From a virus: 36,018 bases of DNA. Positions within the stretch are counted from its first letter, which is position 1. Each line of letters opens with the position of its first letter. Of the stretch, positions 55 to 34,655 are shown one piece after another. The stretch is from UHGV virus genome UHGV-1420163, one strand, 5' to 3'. The notes under the pieces were generated by a model that was given only the letters and a program-made list of their open reading frames with translations, had not been told where the DNA came from and searched no databases. The translations under genes were made by a program, and so were the position numbers.

Positions 55-215
55 TTTATCAGTTCGTTCCCATCCGTATCAGTCCGCAAAATCCACTGAA
101 TATCAAGCCTTCCGTAGATTCACAGTTCGTAATGGTTCGCGTCAGATCGTTGACATCCGCACTCCATGACGGGTAAAAAGTGGATAAAATAATTTTACCC
201 ACCGGATTTTTACCC

Positions 216-1373
216 ATGCTCACCGTTAAGCAGATTGAAGCAGCAAAGCCGAAAGAAAAACCATACCGCCTTCTCGATGGTAATGGCCTGTACCTTTATG
301 TCCCTGTGTCAGGGAAAAAGGTATGGCAGCTTCGCTACAAGATTGACGGTAAGGAGAAAATCCTGACTGTCGGAAAATATCCGCTTATGACTTTGCAGGA
401 GGCAAGGGATAAAGCATGGACTGCGAGGAAAGACATCTCGGTTGGCATCGATCCGGTAAAGGCGAAAAAGGCTTCGTCTAACAACAATTCATTTAGTGCG
501 ATTTACAAGGAATGGTACGAGCACAAGAAGCAAGTCTGGTCAGTAGGCTATGCAACTGAACTTGCCAAAATGTTTGATGACGACATTTTACCCATCATCG
601 GCGGTCTTGAGATTCAGGATATTGAGCCGATGCAACTGCTGGAAGTAATCCGCAGATTTGAAGATCGCGGTGCAATGGAGCGAGCCAACAAAGCCCGCAG
701 AAGATGCGGCGAGGTTTTCCGTTACGCTATTGTCACCGGAAGGGCTAAATATAACCCAGCACCTGACCTTGCTGACGCCATGAAGGGATACCGCAAGAAG
801 AACTTCCCGTTTCTTCCTGCAGACCAGATCCCTGCATTCAACAAAGCACTGGCAACATTTTCAGGAAGTATCGTATCTCTCATTGCGACCAAAGTTTTAC
901 GCTACACAGCCCTAAGAACGAAAGAGCTTCGTTCTATGCTATGGAAGAACGTCGATTTTGAAAACAGGATTATCACCATCGACGCCAGTGTGATGAAGGG
1001 ACGCAAAATTCATGTGGTTCCTATGTCAGACCAGGTGGTTGAACTTCTCACTACGCTAAGCTCAATCACTAAACCAGTATCAGAGTTTGTTTTTGCCGGT
1101 CGCAACGATAAGAAGAAGCCAATCTGCGAGAACGCGGTACTGCTTGTGATCAAACAAATCGGCTATGAAGGTCTGGAAAGCGGTCACGGATTCAGGCATG
1201 AATTCAGCACGATTATGAACGAGCACGAATGGCCTGCTGATGCTATTGAAGTGCAACTGGCACATGCCAACGGCGGATCTGTGCGTGGGATTTACAACCA
1301 TGCTCAGTATCTCGATAAGCGCAGAGAAATGATGCAGTGGTGGGCGGACTGGCTGGACGAAAAGACACAGTAA
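216..1373 (+). CDS. intS: Tyrosine integrase, P4/IntS family (385 aa from ATG 216; the ORF track's GTG at 180 adds 12 aa)
   Basis: N-terminus MLTVKQIEAAKPKEKPYRLLDGNGLYLYVPVSGKKVWQLRYKIDGKEK matches recalled IntS-type integrases; lies about 160 bp downstream of argW on the same strand. Confidence 0.9.
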   Translation: MLTVKQIEAAKPKEKPYRLLDGNGLYLYVPVSGKKVWQLRYKIDGKEKILTVGKYPLMTLQEARDKAWTARKDISVGIDPVKAKKASSNNNSFSAIYKEWYEHKKQVWSVGYATELAKMFDDDILPIIGGLEIQDIEPMQLLEVIRRFEDRGAMERANKARRRCGEVFRYAIVTGRAKYNPAPDLADAMKGYRKKNFPFLPADQIPAFNKALATFSGSIVSLIATKVLRYTALRTKELRSMLWKNVDFENRIITIDASVMKGRKIHVVPMSDQVVELLTTLSSITKPVSEFVFAGRNDKKKPICENAVLLVIKQIGYEGLESGHGFRHEFSTIMNEHEWPADAIEVQLAHANGGSVRGIYNHAQYLDKRREMMQWWADWLDEKTQ

Positions 1374-1405: not shown

Positions 1406-1723
1406 TTATACCGCTACGCTGTCACTTCTCACATCGATGATGGTGTGTGTCACCACGCCGGCGACAGTGATATCATCCAGGGCCTCGCCTTCAATAGCTT
1501 CGCCGTCTTCAGTAATCAGGGCCCTCCCTCTCAACGTGGCAAGCTCAGTCCCGCCGCCGTGCTGGATCAGAACCTGACTACCCTGCTTTGGCTTCAGGGA
1601 GATATCCAGCACAACATAACCGCCATCCCTTTCGAAAACGCGGGTGTTAGGACCAACATTGCATATCGAGTTAACGGACAGTCGCTGCTCGACGTAGTCC
1701 GCTGCGGGTGAAGGAAATCCCAT
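1406..1723 (-). CDS. UmuD'-like (HumD-like) S24-fold protein, apparently non-catalytic
   Basis: Starts MGFPSPAADYVEQR, the motif that follows the Cys-Gly cleavage site in UmuD; C-terminal VAGVVTHTI resembles UmuD FGVVIHVV; no GDSM serine motif or catalytic lysine visible. Confidence 0.6.
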   Translation of the reverse strand: MGFPSPAADYVEQRLSVNSICNVGPNTRVFERDGGYVVLDISLKPKQGSQVLIQHGGGTELATLRGRALITEDGEAIEGEALDDITVAGVVTHTIIDVRSDSVAV

Positions 1724-1962
1724 TACAAAACCCTCCCCATGTTAGCCATCATCCACAAACGGTTTTCGCTATGGTCCGGCGTCTTGTCGACAAAGTACGT
1801 CTGCTCTCTTGATATCCAGTTGTTAGCCTCCTCTTCTGAAAAATGGATACCCCTCCGCTGTAGTTCGGAGATGAAAGAATCCGTGTAAAGGTATTGATAA
1901 CATTTAGTATTTAGAGAAATGGAGGCTCTAAAAGCCTCCGCGATAGTGTTTCGCTTGATCAT
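1723..1962 (-). CDS. Hypothetical 79-aa protein, first gene of the SOS-regulated cassette (start trimmed to ATG 1962; track start 1974 is TTG)
   Basis: ORF with TAATG stop/start overlap onto the UmuD'-like gene; LexA box 16 nt upstream of the ATG. Confidence 0.5.
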   Translation of the reverse strand: MIKRNTIAEAFRASISLNTKCYQYLYTDSFISELQRRGIHFSEEEANNWISREQTYFVDKTPDHSENRLWMMANMGRVL

Positions 1963-1977
1963 ATCTACGCCCAATGA

Positions 1978-2020
1978 TACTGTTTTTATATACAGTAGTT
2001 GTTGTGTATTACATGGTCAA
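1978..2020 (-). promoter_or_regulatory. LexA (SOS) box overlapping a sigma70-like promoter for the minus-strand cassette
   Basis: TACTGTTTTTATATACAGTA at 1978-1997 fits CTGT-N8-ACAG; TTGACC -35 (reverse strand, 2015-2020) sits 17 nt upstream of a -10 that overlaps the box. Confidence 0.7.
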
Positions 2021-2109: not shown

Positions 2110-3693
2110 TTAGATATTTGACACAGTATGACCGCACACTTTTGCCTGTAGAGCAAAGTTACACGAAGACATAGGCGAGCCACTGACGTTTGTCACTCTG
2201 ACGTACGCCTGAGTTCTGTCATTGGATATATATGCCTGCACGTGAACAACTGGCATTGAAATCGTGTTGGCGATCGGTACAACGTCAATAGTGTATGTAG
2301 ACCAGTCTGAAATGCTAAGCCCAAAAAGTTCCGTTACTGTCTTTTCAGCCGAGCCATTTACTGCTAGAGAACCCCATCCAACAGGGTTGTTTGTTGCGAA
2401 GAACTTAACTCCGCCGTCCAAATTCACCCTGTTTTTACTTTTTCCACTACCGTTACCCAAATAGAGCTTGTTTGAGTATGTGGCACCGAAATCGTCAACC
2501 CCCCATGGCGTTTCAGATGCCGAAATCTGGTGTATAAATGACCAACCTCCGTCTTGGGTGGTTTTGCGCCTAACAATAGGCGCAGATCCAGAGGCGAAAA
2601 TTGAATAAGTGGTTGCGTCAGTGATGTTTATACCTGTGATTGAGTCGAATATACGCAAGCCATATTGCCACTTGTAAAGGTTGTTTCGCAGGCGCTGAAC
2701 GCGAATACCATCCGCATTTGCGCAAGCTGTTAAATCCCCAATCCCCGCGATATACAGGCCCACATATTGACCGCCACCATCCAGAGTTCCGTCAACGTTC
2801 ATATCTAGTTCATAACCGTATATCTCATCTCCGGTCTTTAATCCATGTGCACTCGTTACCGAATTGAACGCCCACATACGTTGCTTGGCACAGTTAAAGC
2901 TCTCAATTCCAGAATACATAGCAACGAAGTTTTCAGATGAAGGTGCGTTAGCAGCTACATCATGCACCGCCATTTCAGCAATAAGTGATTGATGACTATA
3001 AATTCTTTCATACTCGGAATAATTTGGGTCGCTGGTCTTTCTTTGCCTGAATGCCGTACCGCCAAGAACATGCGCTGGATTAGTTCTAGTTTTTGGCAAA
3101 AATCCTGGTCGAGTCACGGTAATGTCAGGGCGATATAAAATTGTGCACTCTGCGCTCCTGTCGTATGTCACTGGGCCAGATAGAGTCACATCAACATCAA
3201 AAAATATAACGTTAGATGAATCGAAAGCAGCCTGAACCGCACTTTGATCACTAAGCCCACGGTTTTTAAAACTACTGACGGCAACCAAGGGATTATTTCC
3301 TAGCGACCCAACAAGCGAAGTTCCAGTGGGGCTGCTTAAATCAGTGCGAAGCATGTCTGGGTCATATTTCAAAACGTTAGGGTAGTAAAACTGCTGCACA
3401 TTGTATGCGTCGTAAACAGCCATACTGTGCCCCTCAATAGTCACAAACTTAGCGATTTGGCCGTTATAAACAGGATAACCACCTGAATTAATGATGACAG
3501 GCTGCGAGACAGGCACTACACTCCCATCTTCGTTCTGCAGGTATACCTGAATTTGATTTTCAGGAATGGTAGGATCTGTATCTATTTTTCCTATGTAAAT
3601 CTTCCCGTTAGCATTACCTTTGAATGATCGGGACTGTGTAAACAGTTGTGAAGGCATTGAAACAACAACGTTAGGCCTAATGGTATCAGTCAT
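2110..3693 (-). CDS. Tailspike with P22-type N-terminal head-binding domain and a divergent receptor-binding domain (527 aa)
   Basis: N-terminus [41 protein letters not shown]...NVLKYDPD matches recalled P22 gp9 head-binding domain; the rest does not resemble P22 endorhamnosidase. Confidence 0.85.
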
Positions 3694-3839: not shown

Positions 3840-4091
3840 ATGGGAAGAGATGACCCGCAATTTAATCTGCGGCTACCTTACGAATTAAAGGAAAAACTAA
3901 AACAGCGAGCCAAATCCAATGGCCGCTCTCTTAATTCAGAATTAGTTCAGATAGTGACTGATGCTGTATCAAAGCCATCCAAAATTTCAGGCTATCGAGA
4001 CGATGCGGAACGCATCGCTGATGAGCAGTCAGAGCTTGTTAAGAAGATGGTGTTTGATACGCTGAAGGATTTGTACAAAAAACCCACCTGA
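3840..4091 (+). CDS. mnt: Mnt repressor (ribbon-helix-helix), immI region
   Basis: 83 aa; PQFNLRLPYELKEKLKQRAKSNGRSLNSELVQIV and C-terminal DDAERIADEQSELVKKMVFDTLKDLYKK match recalled P22 Mnt. Confidence 0.85.
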   Translation: MGRDDPQFNLRLPYELKEKLKQRAKSNGRSLNSELVQIVTDAVSKPSKISGYRDDAERIADEQSELVKKMVFDTLKDLYKKPT

Positions 4092-4098
4092 AGGTGGG
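4083..4098. terminator. Hairpin between convergent mnt and lipoprotein genes
   Basis: CCCACCT-GA-AGGTGGG stem-loop containing the mnt stop codon; flanking A/T runs are weak. Confidence 0.4.
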
Positions 4099-4107
4099 TT
4101 CCATTTA

Positions 4108-4527
4108 TTAGTCTTGCTTTGTGGACGGTATAAGGGATGCATTTGCCTCTTTAGGCTTCAAGGTATACATCCCACCATTAAATGGATCTACAGCAAGCCA
4201 ACCAATTAACCCACCAAACACAAGGTTTCCACCAATATACCAACCATTAGCATTGGCTTTGATTGGCAGGGTAACTGGTTCGTACCCATCCTTTTCCATA
4301 GTGATCTGGTAGCTCTTTTTGCCAAAATAACTACCATCTGACTTGGCAAGAGTTACTCCTTGCGGGGTCTTGCCTTGCGCAACAATCACGCCTGATTCGT
4401 CTTTTACTTTAAAGCTCGCACCGGAAGGATTGCTGTTCACTTGCACGAGCTGTGTTTCGTCACCAACAATAGTTGCGCACCCAGATAACAATATAGCGCC
4501 AGCAACGACGCCGATAATCCTCTTCAT
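4108..4527 (-). CDS. Lipoprotein with PEGA-like domain and C-terminal glycine-zipper hydrophobic segment (139 aa)
   Basis: Signal peptide with lipobox LLSGC; NPSGASFKV...GKTP...GYEP pattern; C-terminal GWYIGGNLVFGGLIGWLAV. Confidence 0.7.
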   Translation of the reverse strand: MKRIIGVVAGAILLSGCATIVGDETQLVQVNSNPSGASFKVKDESGVIVAQGKTPQGVTLAKSDGSYFGKKSYQITMEKDGYEPVTLPIKANANGWYIGGNLVFGGLIGWLAVDPFNGGMYTLKPKEANASLIPSTKQD

Positions 4528-4661
4528 ATTACTTTCCGTTTTGTTAGAATCAGAAAGATCTTAATAATAAAAAGTATTTTCGTGAAGATATTGTCGATTG
4601 AGTTAATAACTCATTTACACCCAACAGTGCCATGATGGCAAAGATAAGGAGAGTTAATCAT

Positions 4662-5147
4662 ATGAAAAAATCACTGTTAATTATCCCGCTTCTGCTGGCA
4701 GGGTGTGCAAAGGTTAGCGACTATCAGGCAAATTGCGAACAACGCTATCCAAAGCTTAGCGATATGGCTAATTGCCTTGATGCTAGCGTGAAGAACGACT
4801 CACGCATGGCATCAGCTCCAACACCTAAGTTATATGTCCTTGCTGCGAAGATGCTCGGGCAAGGTGTAGATGAAGGCAAGATAAGTGACGCACAGGCAAG
4901 GCTTGAGCTTCAGAATCTTTATGTTCAATTACAAAGCCAAGAACAAGCCCAACAAATAGCACAAAGCCAAGCATTCCAGCAGGCTTTATTGAATTATCAG
5001 GCTGTAAACACAATGCAAGCGATCGAGCAAAAAGCGAGACAGCCTGTTATAACTCAACCCTATCCAACACGAGTTGACACTTACACAAACTGCAATTCAG
5101 GGTTTAGAAATACAGTCACATGCAACAGTAGCAGTAACATCAGATAA
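4662..5147 (+). CDS. Lipoprotein, Gln-rich central region, Cys-containing C-terminus (161 aa from ATG 4662)
   Basis: MKKSLLIIPLLLAGC lipobox; RBS TAAGGAGAG 8 nt upstream; track ORF starts 10 codons earlier without RBS. Confidence 0.65.
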   Translation: MKKSLLIIPLLLAGCAKVSDYQANCEQRYPKLSDMANCLDASVKNDSRMASAPTPKLYVLAAKMLGQGVDEGKISDAQARLELQNLYVQLQSQEQAQQIAQSQAFQQALLNYQAVNTMQAIEQKARQPVITQPYPTRVDTYTNCNSGFRNTVTCNSSSNIR

Positions 5148-30273: not shown

Positions 30274-30504
30274 TTACATGACAAACTGCTGTTTACCGAT
30301 ACGGCGAATCTGTGCTGCTGAGTACTTGCCGCCTGATGCCTTGGCGATCTTATCCGCATATTCGGTTTCACCAGTGAACTCGGTGCGCGGCAGAGAACCA
30401 CGCTCAAGCCACTTATAGATGGCTTTTGGCGTAAGTCCACAAACATCAGCCACAACAGAAACTCGAACGGATTTGATAACTTCTGCAAACGTAACTTCGT
30501 TCAT
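30274..30504 (-). CDS. cro: Cro-like repressor (76 aa)
   Basis: HTH-bearing small protein divergent from cI; AGGAGAG RBS; operator directly upstream. Confidence 0.8.
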   Translation of the reverse strand: MNEVTFAEVIKSVRVSVVADVCGLTPKAIYKWLERGSLPRTEFTGETEYADKIAKASGGKYSAAQIRRIGKQQFVM

Positions 30505-30519
30505 GCTTCTCTCCTGTGG

Positions 30520-30591
30520 TGAACTTATGGTTCATATTATGACGGAACTGATAGTACAGTCAATACCTAATATAGTTGAACTTATGGTTCA
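30520..30591. promoter_or_regulatory. Right operator/promoter region: two identical palindromic operators flanking divergent promoters
   Basis: TGAACTTATGGTTCA at 30520-30534 and 30577-30591; TAATAT -10-like element at 30568-30573 would give a leaderless cI transcript. Confidence 0.7.
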
Positions 30592-31291
30592 ACAGAAAGA
30601 GCGTGAAACTTTCTCGCAGAGGCTTGCGCTGGCCTGTGATAAAGCGGGATTACCTTTGCATGGTAGGCAGGCTGATTTAGCTGTCAGGCTTAAGGTCACA
30701 CCAAAAGCCATTAGTAAATGGTTCAACGGGGAGTCAATACCAAGAAAAGACAAGATGGAATCTTTGGCTTCGGTGCTGGGAACCACTGCGGCATATCTGC
30801 ATGGCTATGCTGATGATGACGGTATCACGGTAAATCATCTATCAAGATCAAATGATTCTTATCGTGTTGATGTATTGGATGTTCAGGCGAGCGCCGGGCC
30901 AGGAACCATGGTTTCCAATGAATTTATAGAAAAGATAAGAGCAATTGAATATACGACCGAGCAGGCAAGAATTTTATTTAATGGAAGGCCACAGGAAAGC
31001 GTAAAAGTCATCACGGTTCGCGGTGACAGCATGGAGGGAACCATCAATCCGGGAGATGAGATCTTTGTTGATGTATCCATAACCTGTTTTGATGGCGATG
31101 GCATTTATGTGTTTGTATACGGGAAAACAATGCACGTTAAGCGCCTGCAAATGCAAAAGAACAGGCTTGCCGTCATCTCTGACAATGCCGCTTATGATCG
31201 ATGGTACATAGAAGAAGGTGAAGAAGAGCAACTTCACATTCTAGCCAAAGTCCTCATTAGGCAGTCAATCGATTACAAGCGATTCGGATAA
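30584..31291 (+). CDS. cI: CI-type prophage repressor, HTH plus S24 peptidase domain (235 aa from ATG 30584)
   Basis: N-terminal HTH (VTPKAISKWFNGES), C-terminal GDSM...K autocleavage motifs; ATG lies within the second operator. Confidence 0.9.
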   Translation: MVQQKERETFSQRLALACDKAGLPLHGRQADLAVRLKVTPKAISKWFNGESIPRKDKMESLASVLGTTAAYLHGYADDDGITVNHLSRSNDSYRVDVLDVQASAGPGTMVSNEFIEKIRAIEYTTEQARILFNGRPQESVKVITVRGDSMEGTINPGDEIFVDVSITCFDGDGIYVFVYGKTMHVKRLQMQKNRLAVISDNAAYDRWYIEEGEEEQLHILAKVLIRQSIDYKRFG

Positions 31292-34181: not shown

Positions 34182-34655
34182 ATGGCAAGCAGAGGCGTAA
34201 ATAAGGTGATCATTATTGGTCGCCTTGGGCATGATCCAGAAATCAGATATTCACCATCAGGAACGGCATTTGCAAACCTTACAGTTGCTACGTCAGAACA
34301 ATGGCGTGATAAGCAAACTGGAGAGCAAAAGGAGCAGACGGAGTGGCACCGCGTGGTAATGAGCGGAAAACTGGCAGAAATTGCCAGCGAATATCTGCGA
34401 AAAGGCTCTGAGGTTTATCTTGAAGGAAAATTGCGGACAAGAAAATGGCAGGATCAAAGCGGACAGGATCGGTTCACTACCGAAGTCATCGTGGGCGTTG
34501 GTGGAACCATGCAAATGCTTGGTGGCAAGCAAGGAGGCAATGAACAGTCTTCACCTCAGCGAAATAACGGTCAGCAACAAAGACAGCAACCTCATCAGCA
34601 GGGAAATCACAGAGAACCACCTATGAACTTCGACGATTCGGATATTCCGTTCTAG
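34182..34655 (+). CDS. ssb: Single-stranded DNA-binding protein
   Basis: OB-fold N-terminus, Gly/Gln-rich linker, C-terminal DDSDIPF. Confidence 0.95.

Follow-up and report, generated by a model that had tools for sequence, protein, structure and literature searches.

Pre-cleaved UmuD' proteins that are encoded under LexA control without umuC are already known from the phages P1, N15 and phiKO2. According to the annotation of the P1 record, HumD 'functionally complements E. coli UmuD'' and a LexA site is located 20 nt upstream of humD; complementation of UmuD' by P1 HumD is also stated in the title of the report by McLenigan et al. 1999 (cited in PMC11541004). The three proteins (P1 HumD, NF051876; N15 gp26; phiKO2 Gp23) start with M-GFPSPA at the post-cleavage Gly, are 126–130 aa long and end in an acidic-Pro-hydrophobic tail. 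Their genes occur in temperate enterobacterial phages without an adjacent umuC, and a LexA box lies about 35–40 nt 5' of the first gene. UmuD itself has a 24-residue N-terminal propeptide, a Ser-Lys dyad and a downstream umuC gene. Another related arrangement is the impCAB operon of plasmid TP110, in which a small first gene precedes a UmuD-type gene under SOS control. ImpC is DinI-like, ImpA is full-length and cleavable, and impA is followed by the umuC homologue impB.

The lambdoid phages HK140 (gp027-gp028) and mEp390 (gp026) contain a LexA box followed by a 79-aa gene, which overlaps a HumD-type gene, and this unit is located between the tail-fibre genes and attP/int. The HumD-type protein of mEp390 is a short form of 106 aa, whereas HK140 carries a full-size HumD of 129 aa behind a similar first gene in an equivalent slot. 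In both phages, a DinI gene is oriented divergently from the unit across a common operator, and in phiKO2 a true DinI gene is likewise divergent across the LexA box. The 79-aa gene is unannotated in the mEp390 record. LexA-repressed operons of small genes next to tail-fibre genes and outside the immunity region have furthermore been described for the Gifsy-1, -2 and -3 prophages (dinI-gfoA-irsA) and for Tum of phage 186 (PMC3121763).

Location of the cassette

The cassette analysed here is a two-gene unit on the minus strand (positions 1406–2020) of a P22-like E. coli prophage, UHGV virus genome UHGV-1420163, and the whole stretch of 36,018 nucleotides that was analysed is referred to as the window. 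The unit is convergent with the int gene for the prophage integrase IntS (180–1373, plus strand), and the gene for a P22-type tailspike with its head-binding domain (2110–3693, minus strand) lies directly upstream on the same strand. We detected no UmuC-like ORF anywhere in the window with an IMS-family probe, checked as IMS family, and no DinI-like ORF with a DinI probe. The prophage repressor gene (30419–31291, plus strand) codes for an HTH_3 and Peptidase_S24 protein in which the GDSM motif and the Lys motif VKRL are intact, and to judge from its sequence, this repressor is of the RecA*-cleavable type.

The cassette shares the start at the post-cleavage Gly, the distance of the LexA box from the first gene, the lack of an adjacent umuC and the occurrence in a temperate enterobacterial phage with the P1, N15 and phiKO2 systems. 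Its layout is that of the HK140 and mEp390 units, except that the window lacks the DinI gene. It further resembles the Gifsy and 186 operons in being a LexA-boxed small-gene operon beside a tail gene and outside the immunity region, but these prophages have non-cleavable repressors, in contrast to the S24 repressor of the prophage in the window. Moreover, the cassette codes for HumD-type and predicted winged-helix proteins, and no sequence relationship to the Gifsy and 186 antirepressors was detected, the comparison covering phage records searched with gene 1.

Promoter and operator

The sequence CTGT-N8-ACAG occurs only once in the window (1980–1995), but this 16-mer alone is weak evidence, because at least one occurrence was found in 32 of 100 shuffles. 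The extended 20-mer TACTGTATATAAAAACAGTA (1978–1997) shows two mismatches to the SOS consensus, and none of 100 shuffles contained a match with three or fewer; the operator of a umuDC-type operon in E. coli has exactly this sequence. The cassette promoter consists of the −35 hexamer TTGACC (2015–2020, minus strand) and a 17-nt spacer, followed by TACTGT (1992–1997), which is the left arm of the LexA box and doubles as the −10 element. Because the −10 element is situated inside the box, LexA bound there would cover it. A simple promoter scan did not pick up this promoter because TACTGT fits only three of the six positions of TATAAT, and it was therefore established by phylogenetic footprinting. 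In an alignment of six divergent phages, TTGA(C/T)C is invariant and located at a fixed distance of 17 nt from the SOS box, and two bacterial umuDC operons are preceded by the identical −35 hexamer with the same spacing. Among species-level genomes, 42 of 48 loci with the short form and 14 of 18 with the long form have a perfect CTGT-N8-ACAG at a constant distance, and the same applies to 64 of the 80 viral loci. By these sequence comparisons, the promoter and operator of the cassette (−35 TTGAYC, 17 nt, TACTGTATATAAAAACAGTA) are of the umuDC type, and their architecture equals that of umuDC-type operons.

A previous sequence-only reading of this DNA had described a two-gene minus-strand unit between the tailspike gene and int, with a perfect LexA box overlapping its promoter and without a UmuC or ImpB partner in the window. 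The coordinates of the three loci, the unique box with the −10 element inside it and the absence of UmuC-like ORFs agree with this description in every respect.

The first gene of the cassette

The first gene (gene 1; 1723–1962, minus strand) codes for a protein of 79 aa. Its stop codon TAA overlaps the start codon of gene 2 in the sequence TAATG, and the two genes are evidently translationally coupled, as had already been noted from the sequence. The Shine-Dalgarno sequence GGGGAGGG for gene 2 (1731–1738, minus strand) lies within the part of gene 1 that codes for its conserved C-terminal residues NMGRV. Because residues 77–79 showed pLDDT values below 50 in the structure prediction, the conservation of NMGRV may partly reflect the ribosome-binding site. 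A terminator-like hairpin at 1921–1939 inside the gene was judged to be due to chance, as this stretch is coding and its sequence is different in the homologues from Klebsiella.

Gene 1 had been called unrecognised, and our searches against Pfam, NCBIfam, PADLOC and PDB sequences likewise yielded no family, the sole match being PHROG 3893 (function unknown). Structure prediction suggests a winged-helix fold. Neither gene 1 nor 28 of its relatives gave a Pfam match to DinI. The cassette shares with impCAB the order of a small first gene and a UmuD-type gene under SOS control, but the likeness to impC proposed earlier for gene 1 does not hold, since its product is of a different predicted fold and not DinI-like; the umuC homologue of impCAB is also missing from the window.

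Homologues of gene 1 are essentially confined to loci upstream of HumD-type genes, either short or full-size, and almost never occur without HumD, whereas P1, N15 and phiKO2 have no such coupled gene. A tblastn search with gene 1 against 50,697 phage records matched no Salmonella or Gifsy phage, and a literature search retrieved no study of either gene 1 or the short HumD form. The dS values of gene 1 were saturated in many pairs, and dN/dS is therefore quoted for gene 2 only (see below).

The short HumD-type protein

Gene 2 (1406–1723, minus strand) codes for a short HumD-type UmuD' homologue of 105 aa. It opens with Met followed by the equivalent of Gly25, and its residues 2–14 are identical to residues 25–37 of E. 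coli UmuD, while the N-terminal propeptide and the Cys/Ala-Gly cleavage site are missing. In the alignment, the column of the catalytic Ser60 falls into an 11-residue deletion, and the Lys97 column contains no Lys in gene 2 and either Ala or Gly in all aligned members of the short family. Two further short segments are missing in comparison to full-size HumD, adding up to a loss of about 20 core residues. What is retained comprises the arm GFPSPAADYVEQR at the N-terminus, the beta-core of the S24 fold and, at the C-terminus, the strand VAGVVTHTI (VFGVVIHVV in UmuD; PDB 1umu, 8gmt). The structure was predicted with confidence, and fold comparison identified it as an S24 beta-barrel. As read from its sequence, the protein is strongly acidic, including the acidic segment EDGEAIEGEALDD. 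Its C-terminus SDSVAV is degenerate compared to the DDxPV(I/M) tail of HumD and most short forms, whose Pro column shows a conservation of 90% or more across the wider short family and the long HumDs.

Gene 2 matched no Pfam family at E values up to 1, including PF00717 (Peptidase_S24), for which P1 HumD reaches 36.1 bits at a cut-off of 23.3. With Pfam giving no match, the homology of gene 2 rests on PHROGs, NCBIfam, hhalign and the fold comparison. It matched PHROG 3469 with an E value of 1e-45 and P1 humD with 36% identity over residues 1–100, about 95% of its length (tblastn), and hhalign aligned it to HumD over 106 columns (99.5% probability, E value 3.8e-23). The score against the NCBIfam model of HumD, NF051876, was 46.3 bits, which is far below the curated equivalog cut-off of 120 bits. 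By homology, gene 2 is a member of a short subfamily (PHROG 3469) that is sister to P1 HumD, and none of the 48 short-form loci in species-level genomes has a UmuC within 3 kb. Most full-size HumDs have Thr in the Ser60 column, and the Lys is absent in two of seven; the loss of the catalytic dyad is, on this alignment, a trend across HumD proteins.

The start of gene 2 at the motif behind the UmuD cleavage site and the disappearance of the serine region and the catalytic lysine had both been recognised before and are accounted for by the identity to UmuD residues 25–37, the 11-residue deletion and the replaced Lys97. Fold similarity to S24 proteins and UmuD was found as well, and the supposed likeness to P1 humD turned out to be true homology rather than mere similarity of layout.

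Discussion

The likeliest reading, to which we give about an even chance, is that the short HumD supplies UmuD' function to host UmuC at once on SOS induction. Under this interpretation, DNA damage would lead to LexA cleavage, upon which both cassette proteins would be made at once, and the short HumD would serve as a ready-made UmuD' surrogate pairing with host UmuC and RecA*. The N-terminal 24 residues of UmuD carry degradation signals for Lon and ClpXP, and the short HumD would also be free of these. The assembly of Pol V is placed at about 45 min after SOS induction in PMC6375631, and Pol V-type lesion bypass would become available without this wait for RecA*-dependent UmuD cleavage. An SOS-induced prophage must replicate damaged DNA, which would explain the benefit to the phage. 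The product of gene 1 may bind HumD as its partner or adaptor, which is the least certain step of the proposal.

The umuDC-type promoter and operator with a box conserved at a fixed distance, the full-length homology of gene 2 to HumD and UmuD and the lack of a partner polymerase in cis argue for such a role, and the occurrence of full-size HumD in HK140 and short HumD in the closely related mEp390 in an equivalent slot supports the equivalence of both forms. On the other hand, the deletions from gene 2 include the active-site loop, and the UmuD residues D91, F94 and Y52, which contact the RecA groove (PMC9926225), are not conserved in the copy of the window. The low score against the HumD model, the missing Pfam S24 match and the degenerate C-terminal tail of this copy also speak against it. 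Our literature search found no Pol V structure. P1 HumD manages without the partner gene that constantly accompanies the short form, which may point to a changed function of the latter.

A possible but tentative alternative is that the short HumD dampens RecA*-dependent reactions rather than activating UmuC. It may form heterodimers with host UmuD or UmuD' via the conserved C-terminal strand which would be incapable of intermolecular UmuD cleavage, or its N-terminal arm together with the acidic EDGEAIEGEALDD may fill the RecA* groove and slow the cleavage of UmuD, LexA or the S24 repressor of the prophage itself. Either way, mutagenesis or premature induction would be held back by a brake that the SOS response switches on, by analogy with DinI or 434 Hex. 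All that the dead S24 domain would retain is the arm that faces RecA and UmuD and the strand for dimerisation, plus an acidic C-terminal tail resembling the SSB tip in the majority of the family. Together with its winged-helix partner, it might act as an SOS-induced phage decoy that jams RecA*-dependent cleavage of UmuD, LexA or phage repressors or that hijacks SSB-tail-binding proteins, which we likewise regard as conceivable rather than probable. The pattern of loss and retention in gene 2 fits this proposal: the protein has been stripped of its catalytic loop but keeps an arm with invariant F26 and P29, two residues that touch RecA in the structure of RecA with UmuD (PMC9926225). Since UmuD cleavage takes place between molecules (PMC9926225), pairing with a subunit devoid of an active site would prevent it. 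Further points in favour are the strongly acidic character of gene 2, the pairing of the cassette with a DinI gene under one operator in relatives, the RecA*-cleavable type of the prophage repressor and the existence of phage proteins that block RecA-mediated repressor cleavage, namely 434 Hex (PMC3564112). However, full-size HumD from an equivalent genomic slot is reported to promote mutagenesis, conservation does not extend to the other residues by which UmuD contacts RecA, and the heterodimer is purely hypothetical.

It appears improbable that the cassette is a LexA-controlled antirepressor module comparable to Gifsy dinI-gfoA-irsA or 186 tum, in which gene 1 or the dead S24 protein would bind the repressor of a phage, perhaps of a second prophage in the same host, and thereby trigger induction. 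The regulatory logic and the position beside tail-fibre genes, outside the immunity region, would fit, gene 1 is similar in size to GfoA and GftA, described as about half as long as the 146-aa Tum, and cross-talk is documented even from prophages with cleavable repressors (PMC3121763). As S24 domains dimerise, a dead one could also poison a repressor dimer. However, a prophage whose own repressor has an intact HTH and S24 autocleavage domain does not need an antirepressor, and an invariant UmuD-type N-terminal arm would have no obvious role in one. The distribution of gene 1 is equally unfavourable, because it is almost never found apart from HumD, which in turn stands alone in P1, N15 and phiKO2, and gave no match to Salmonella or Gifsy phages among the records searched.

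We consider it very unlikely that the two genes represent an SOS-induced toxin-antitoxin pair or an anti-phage defence or exclusion system. Two small overlapping genes in a prophage accessory slot would be compatible with it, and the winged-helix protein encoded first could be an antitoxin that binds DNA. Regulation by LexA is known for some toxin-antitoxin loci. However, neither protein matched PADLOC at E values up to 1, no toxin-like fold is present, gene 2 being an S24 beta-barrel, HumD stands alone in many phages, and the promoter is of the umuDC-type SOS kind rather than of the autoregulated toxin-antitoxin type.

The lost catalytic residues and deleted segments, the missing Pfam match and a genuine truncated HumD pseudogene elsewhere in the related E. 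coli PK6 genome might suggest that gene 2 is a functionless, decaying remnant of umuD or humD, but this reading is most improbable and effectively refuted by the conservation data: the family comprises 857 protein clusters, nearly all of 105 aa and some with thousands of sequences, length and motifs are kept down to 30–40% identity, comparison with 74 homologues gave a dN/dS of about 0.11, the structure was confidently predicted, and conservation extends to the operator, the Shine-Dalgarno sequence and the overlap of the two genes. The same data exclude a frameshifted remnant of an intact gene, one of the cases in which the sequence-only reading would have failed. The cassette is real and widespread, being common in prophages of Klebsiella pneumoniae and carried by about 2.6% of the complete E. 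coli genomes, with as many as four copies in one genome. It most likely represents an accessory unit ('moron') of temperate enterobacterial phages that is repressed by LexA.

The HumD concept itself is known, and the new elements are the short, non-catalytic HumD subfamily and its uncharacterised 79-aa partner. As a natural 105-residue UmuD' without the catalytic loop, the short form would offer a minimal tool for mapping the surfaces for UmuC, RecA* and dimer contacts, and the strictly linked protein with its predicted winged-helix fold emerges as a new candidate component of the Pol V/SOS pathway. Antibiotic resistance can arise through Pol V-dependent SOS mutagenesis. Should the short form activate host UmuC, lysogens would gain a faster mutagenic response under quinolones or UV that is independent of UmuD cleavage. 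If it inhibits instead, prophages would damp the mutagenesis of their host or buffer their own induction, and if it acts as a decoy, the prophage would set both the induction threshold and the mutagenic response of the host.

Setting and layout of the cassette

The DNA of the window belongs to a P22-like prophage of E. coli that has inserted at the tRNA gene argW. The first 5 kb of the window, which contain intS, a gene for a tailspike with a head-binding domain and an Arc-family gene, match four complete genomes, E. coli PK6 among them, at 99% identity. Read along the minus strand, the stretch between 2040 and 1400 contains a -35 hexamer TTGACC (2020-2015), a 17-nt spacer, the LexA box TACTGTATATAAAAACAGTA (1997-1978), gene 1 with 79 codons (ATG at 1962, TAA at 1725-1723) and gene 2 with 105 codons (ATG at 1723, end at 1406). 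The stop codon of gene 1 overlaps the start codon of gene 2 in the motif TAATG, and gene 2 has a strong Shine-Dalgarno sequence, GGGGAGGG (1738-1731, minus strand), within the final codons of gene 1; this arrangement indicates translational coupling. Only 33 nt separate the end of gene 2 from the stop of the convergent integrase gene (180-1373, plus strand), and the tailspike gene (2110-3693, minus strand) adjoins the cassette on its upstream side. Past the tailspike gene, the prophage carries additional accessory genes at 3840-5147: an Arc-family gene (3840-4091, plus strand) and two ORFs, at 4108-4527 on the minus and 4632-5147 on the plus strand, whose N-terminal sequences resemble those of lipoproteins.

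Neither a UmuC-like nor a DinI-like ORF was found in the window, and the cassette is without a polymerase partner in cis, as the sequence-only reading had stated. The prophage repressor (30419-31291) consists of HTH_3 and Peptidase_S24 domains with the GDSM and Lys motifs and is therefore assigned to the RecA*-cleavable type of P22 C2 and lambda CI. In E. coli PK6, the closest relative among complete genomes, a truncated pseudogene of a 'HumD family translesion DNA polymerase' (L003 1622-1867) adjoins an ISKox3 transposase gene near torI, at the opposite end of this prophage region and beyond the limits of the window; the locus thus carries a decayed full-size HumD together with the intact short cassette. 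Of 5,426 complete genomes of E. coli, 142 contain the cassette, at up to four places per genome. It also occurs in lambdoid, P22-like and other phages of Klebsiella, Enterobacter, Cronobacter, Erwinia and Pantoea, where its typical position is between tail-fibre genes and int/attP.

Gene 2 encodes a short HumD-type protein

Residues 2-14 of the gene 2 product are identical to residues 25-37 of E. coli UmuD, and sequence matches in the PDB, to UmuD and UmuD' only, extend across residues 2-43. A Pfam search returned no match. PHROG 3469 ('UmuD-like') matched from end to end (E 1e-45), and PHROG 811 and the NCBIfam HumD model aligned over the full length (E ~1e-12), the latter with a score far under its curated cut-off of 120 bits; gene 2 stays under the curated membership thresholds of both HumD and S24. 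P1 humD showed 36% identity over residues 1-100 (tblastn), and hhalign, run with an alignment of 26 short-family members against a HumD/UmuD alignment, paired all 106 columns at a probability of 99.5% (E 3.8e-23). In a MAFFT alignment, for which the UmuD sequence was checked against PDB 8gmt, gene 2 starts at the equivalent of Gly25, the Ser60 column falls into an 11-residue deletion common to all short-family members aligned, and the Lys97 column contains Ala or Gly in the short family. Two more small deletions make up the remaining length difference to the 129-aa HumD. The full-length homology, the start at Gly25 and the absence of Ser60 and Lys97 show that the UmuD fold is kept and that catalysis and propeptide are lost. 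Two earlier claims, that gene 2 begins at the motif following the UmuD cleavage site and that it lacks the catalytic serine region and lysine, thereby hold. Full-size HumD proteins are already drifting toward the same catalytic loss, with Thr at the Ser60 column in most and the Lys missing in two of seven.

The gene 2 family comprises 857 protein clusters at 90% identity; among the 120 listed, nearly all are of 105 aa, and three contain 820, 2,058 and 3,207 sequences, mostly from Klebsiella. An exhaustive search of 50%-identity representatives yielded 207 families, of which the full-length ones are mostly of ~100-110 aa and start at residue 1, with identities down to 30-40%. Conserved motifs of the short family are MGFPSPAxDYxE, a central G(D), ITxDGExIEGEALDD and VxGxVT, followed in most members by the C-terminal tail DDxxP(V/I)(I/M). 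Comparison of gene 2 with 74 homologues of the same length gave a median dN of ~0.10 and dS of ~0.85 (dN/dS ~0.11). With this many clusters, the conserved length and such a ratio, the gene is no frameshifted remnant of umuD, and reading the cassette as a pseudogene is unlikely. As judged from these comparisons, gene 2 encodes a folded, selected, non-catalytic HumD/UmuD' homologue which retains the N-terminal arm and the C-terminal strand.

The tails of HumD and most short HumD proteins follow an acidic-Pro-hydrophobic pattern (DDCPVI, DDDIPIM, DDSPF, DDGCPF, FDDTPF) resembling the C-terminal tip of SSB, and may serve as a docking motif. The prophage's own SSB (34182-34655, plus strand) ends in NFDDSDIPF, and the tail of the window's gene 2 is SDSVAV, having lost the Pro.

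An umuDC-type SOS promoter

The pattern CTGT-N8-ACAG occurs once in the window and at least once in 32 of 100 shuffles; taken bare, it is weak evidence for a LexA box. The 20-mer at 1978-1997 has two mismatches to the SOS consensus TACTGTATATATATACAGTA, and none of 100 shuffles matched the consensus with three mismatches or fewer. Conservation is stronger evidence: TTGA-C and ACTACTGTAT...ACAGT do not vary and keep their relative positions in six phages with otherwise unalignable flanking DNA (the window, Klebsiella phages RothC and ST405-OXA48phi1.2, coliphages HK140 and mEp390 and Cronobacter phage phiES15). The element reads as a -35 hexamer separated by 17 nt from a -10-like TACTGT, which is identical with the left arm of the operator, and bound LexA would therefore cover the -10. 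This substantiates the proposed perfect LexA box overlapping the promoter.

Sampling one genome per species (GTDB) and only intact loci for the short form, we found the perfect pattern at 42 of 48 short-form loci and at 14 of the 18 long-form ones. Its distance to the first gene is 33-39 nt, and to the HumD start ~270-284 nt where gene 1 is present. Among 80 viral contigs, 64 have the box upstream of gene 1, with 32-38 nt between box and gene start in nearly all of them. The full-length umuD-umuC operon of E. coli D9 (L170 300-375) has a -35 hexamer TTGATC, a 17-nt spacer and an operator identical to TACTGTATATAAAAACAGTA, and the umuDC operon of Phytobacter (L068 1895-1960), whose downstream gene was verified as a member of the IMS family, shares this -35 and spacing and differs in one base at the end of the 20-mer. 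Because -35, spacing and operator match those of bona fide umuDC operons, the cassette promoter is an SOS promoter of the umuDC type. The match also bears on the origin of the phage cassettes, as it suggests their descent from the 5' end of a umuDC operon. A terminator-like hairpin, GGAGGCTTTTAGAGCCTCC with a T-rich run (1921-1939, minus strand), in the 5' part of gene 1 is not conserved in Klebsiella homologues and probably due to chance.

Gene 1 as an optional accessory of HumD

The gene 1 family (79 aa, 79-80 aa in some records) is restricted to Enterobacterales, annotated as 'hypothetical' apart from some records, and corresponds to PHROG 3893, a family of unassigned function; no sequence match was obtained in Pfam, NCBIfam, PADLOC or PDB. 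By residue count the predicted product is roughly charge-neutral, which makes protein-binding as plausible as DNA-binding. The most informative fact on gene 1 is its linkage to HumD. A HumD-type gene follows it in 77 of 80 viral loci anchored on gene 1, its ATG overlapping the gene 1 stop by one base in 70 of the 77 (the remaining seven apparently start with GTG); gene 1 remains as unrecognised and coupled as first described. Conversely, 10 of the 48 short-form loci and 11 of the 18 long-form ones (GTDB, one genome per species) are without gene 1, and P1 and phiKO2 carry HumD without it. Gene 1 occurs with both forms: HK140 and mEp390 have closely similar copies of it and share the slot and the divergent DinI gene; the HumD behind gene 1 is of 129 aa in HK140 and a short form of 106 aa in mEp390. 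As a HumD-type gene nearly always follows gene 1 and the converse fails, gene 1 is the accessory, and an optional one, of HumD-type proteins rather than the other way round.

The conserved C-terminus of gene 1, NMGRV(L/F), is encoded by AACATGGGGAGGGTT (1731-1740, minus strand), which contains the gene 2 Shine-Dalgarno sequence, and its conservation may therefore partly reflect constraint on the ribosome-binding site; residues 77-79 have a pLDDT <50 in the predicted structure. In the mEp390 record (JQ182729; L005 2262-2501), the 79-aa homologue is unannotated; the record lists instead a 42-aa ORF on the other strand. Homologues of 79-80 aa in Erwinia phages Midgardsormr38 and vB_EhrS_59 and one UniRef entry (L008 2259-2501; P0445) are named 'DNA polymerase V', but show no similarity to UmuC or UmuD, and the name looks carried over from the neighbouring gene. 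Database proteins P0287, P0381 and P0369 join gene-1-like to gene-2-like sequence, as fusions or chimeras that probably arose from frameshifts or assembly errors; they independently confirm the adjacency of both genes in distant relatives.

Proposed function

Pol V consists of UmuD'2 and UmuC. McLenigan and colleagues reportedly described P1 HumD in 1999 as a functional UmuD' homologue, and the P1 record annotates it as pre-cleaved, functional and LexA-controlled. UmuD first needs cleavage on RecA*, and Pol V is present ~45 minutes into the SOS response (PMC6375631). The cassette is homologous to P1 HumD and may well work like it; the sequence-only reading was accurate as a description, but implied more novelty than there is, the HumD-type concept being known from P1. 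What sets the cassette apart is the length of gene 2, its lost catalytic loop and a dedicated partner gene. Our literature searches found no study on the short form or gene 1.

Among close relatives, this cassette carries short HumD in one and full-size HumD in another in its place, which is most simply read as both forms doing the same job. Three features argue against a plain surrogate and for something modified: the RecA-contact residues D91, F94 and Y52 of UmuD are not conserved in gene 2 (MAFFT), the loop around Ser60 is excised, and the predicted winged-helix partner, gene 1, is constant. In the main rival reading, an arm and dimer strand without an active site could instead act as a decoy, blocking UmuD processing or competing in the RecA* groove. 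Intermolecular cleavage of UmuD and the RecA contacts of its arm residues F26 and P29 (PMC9926225) are in line with such a decoy, which we nevertheless consider doubtful. That the cassette acts as an antirepressor or as a toxin-antitoxin or defence system is unlikely. For a job shared with full-size HumD, the chances appear about even: on induction of a damaged lysogen, the short HumD would then serve host UmuC as an instant UmuD'-like partner.
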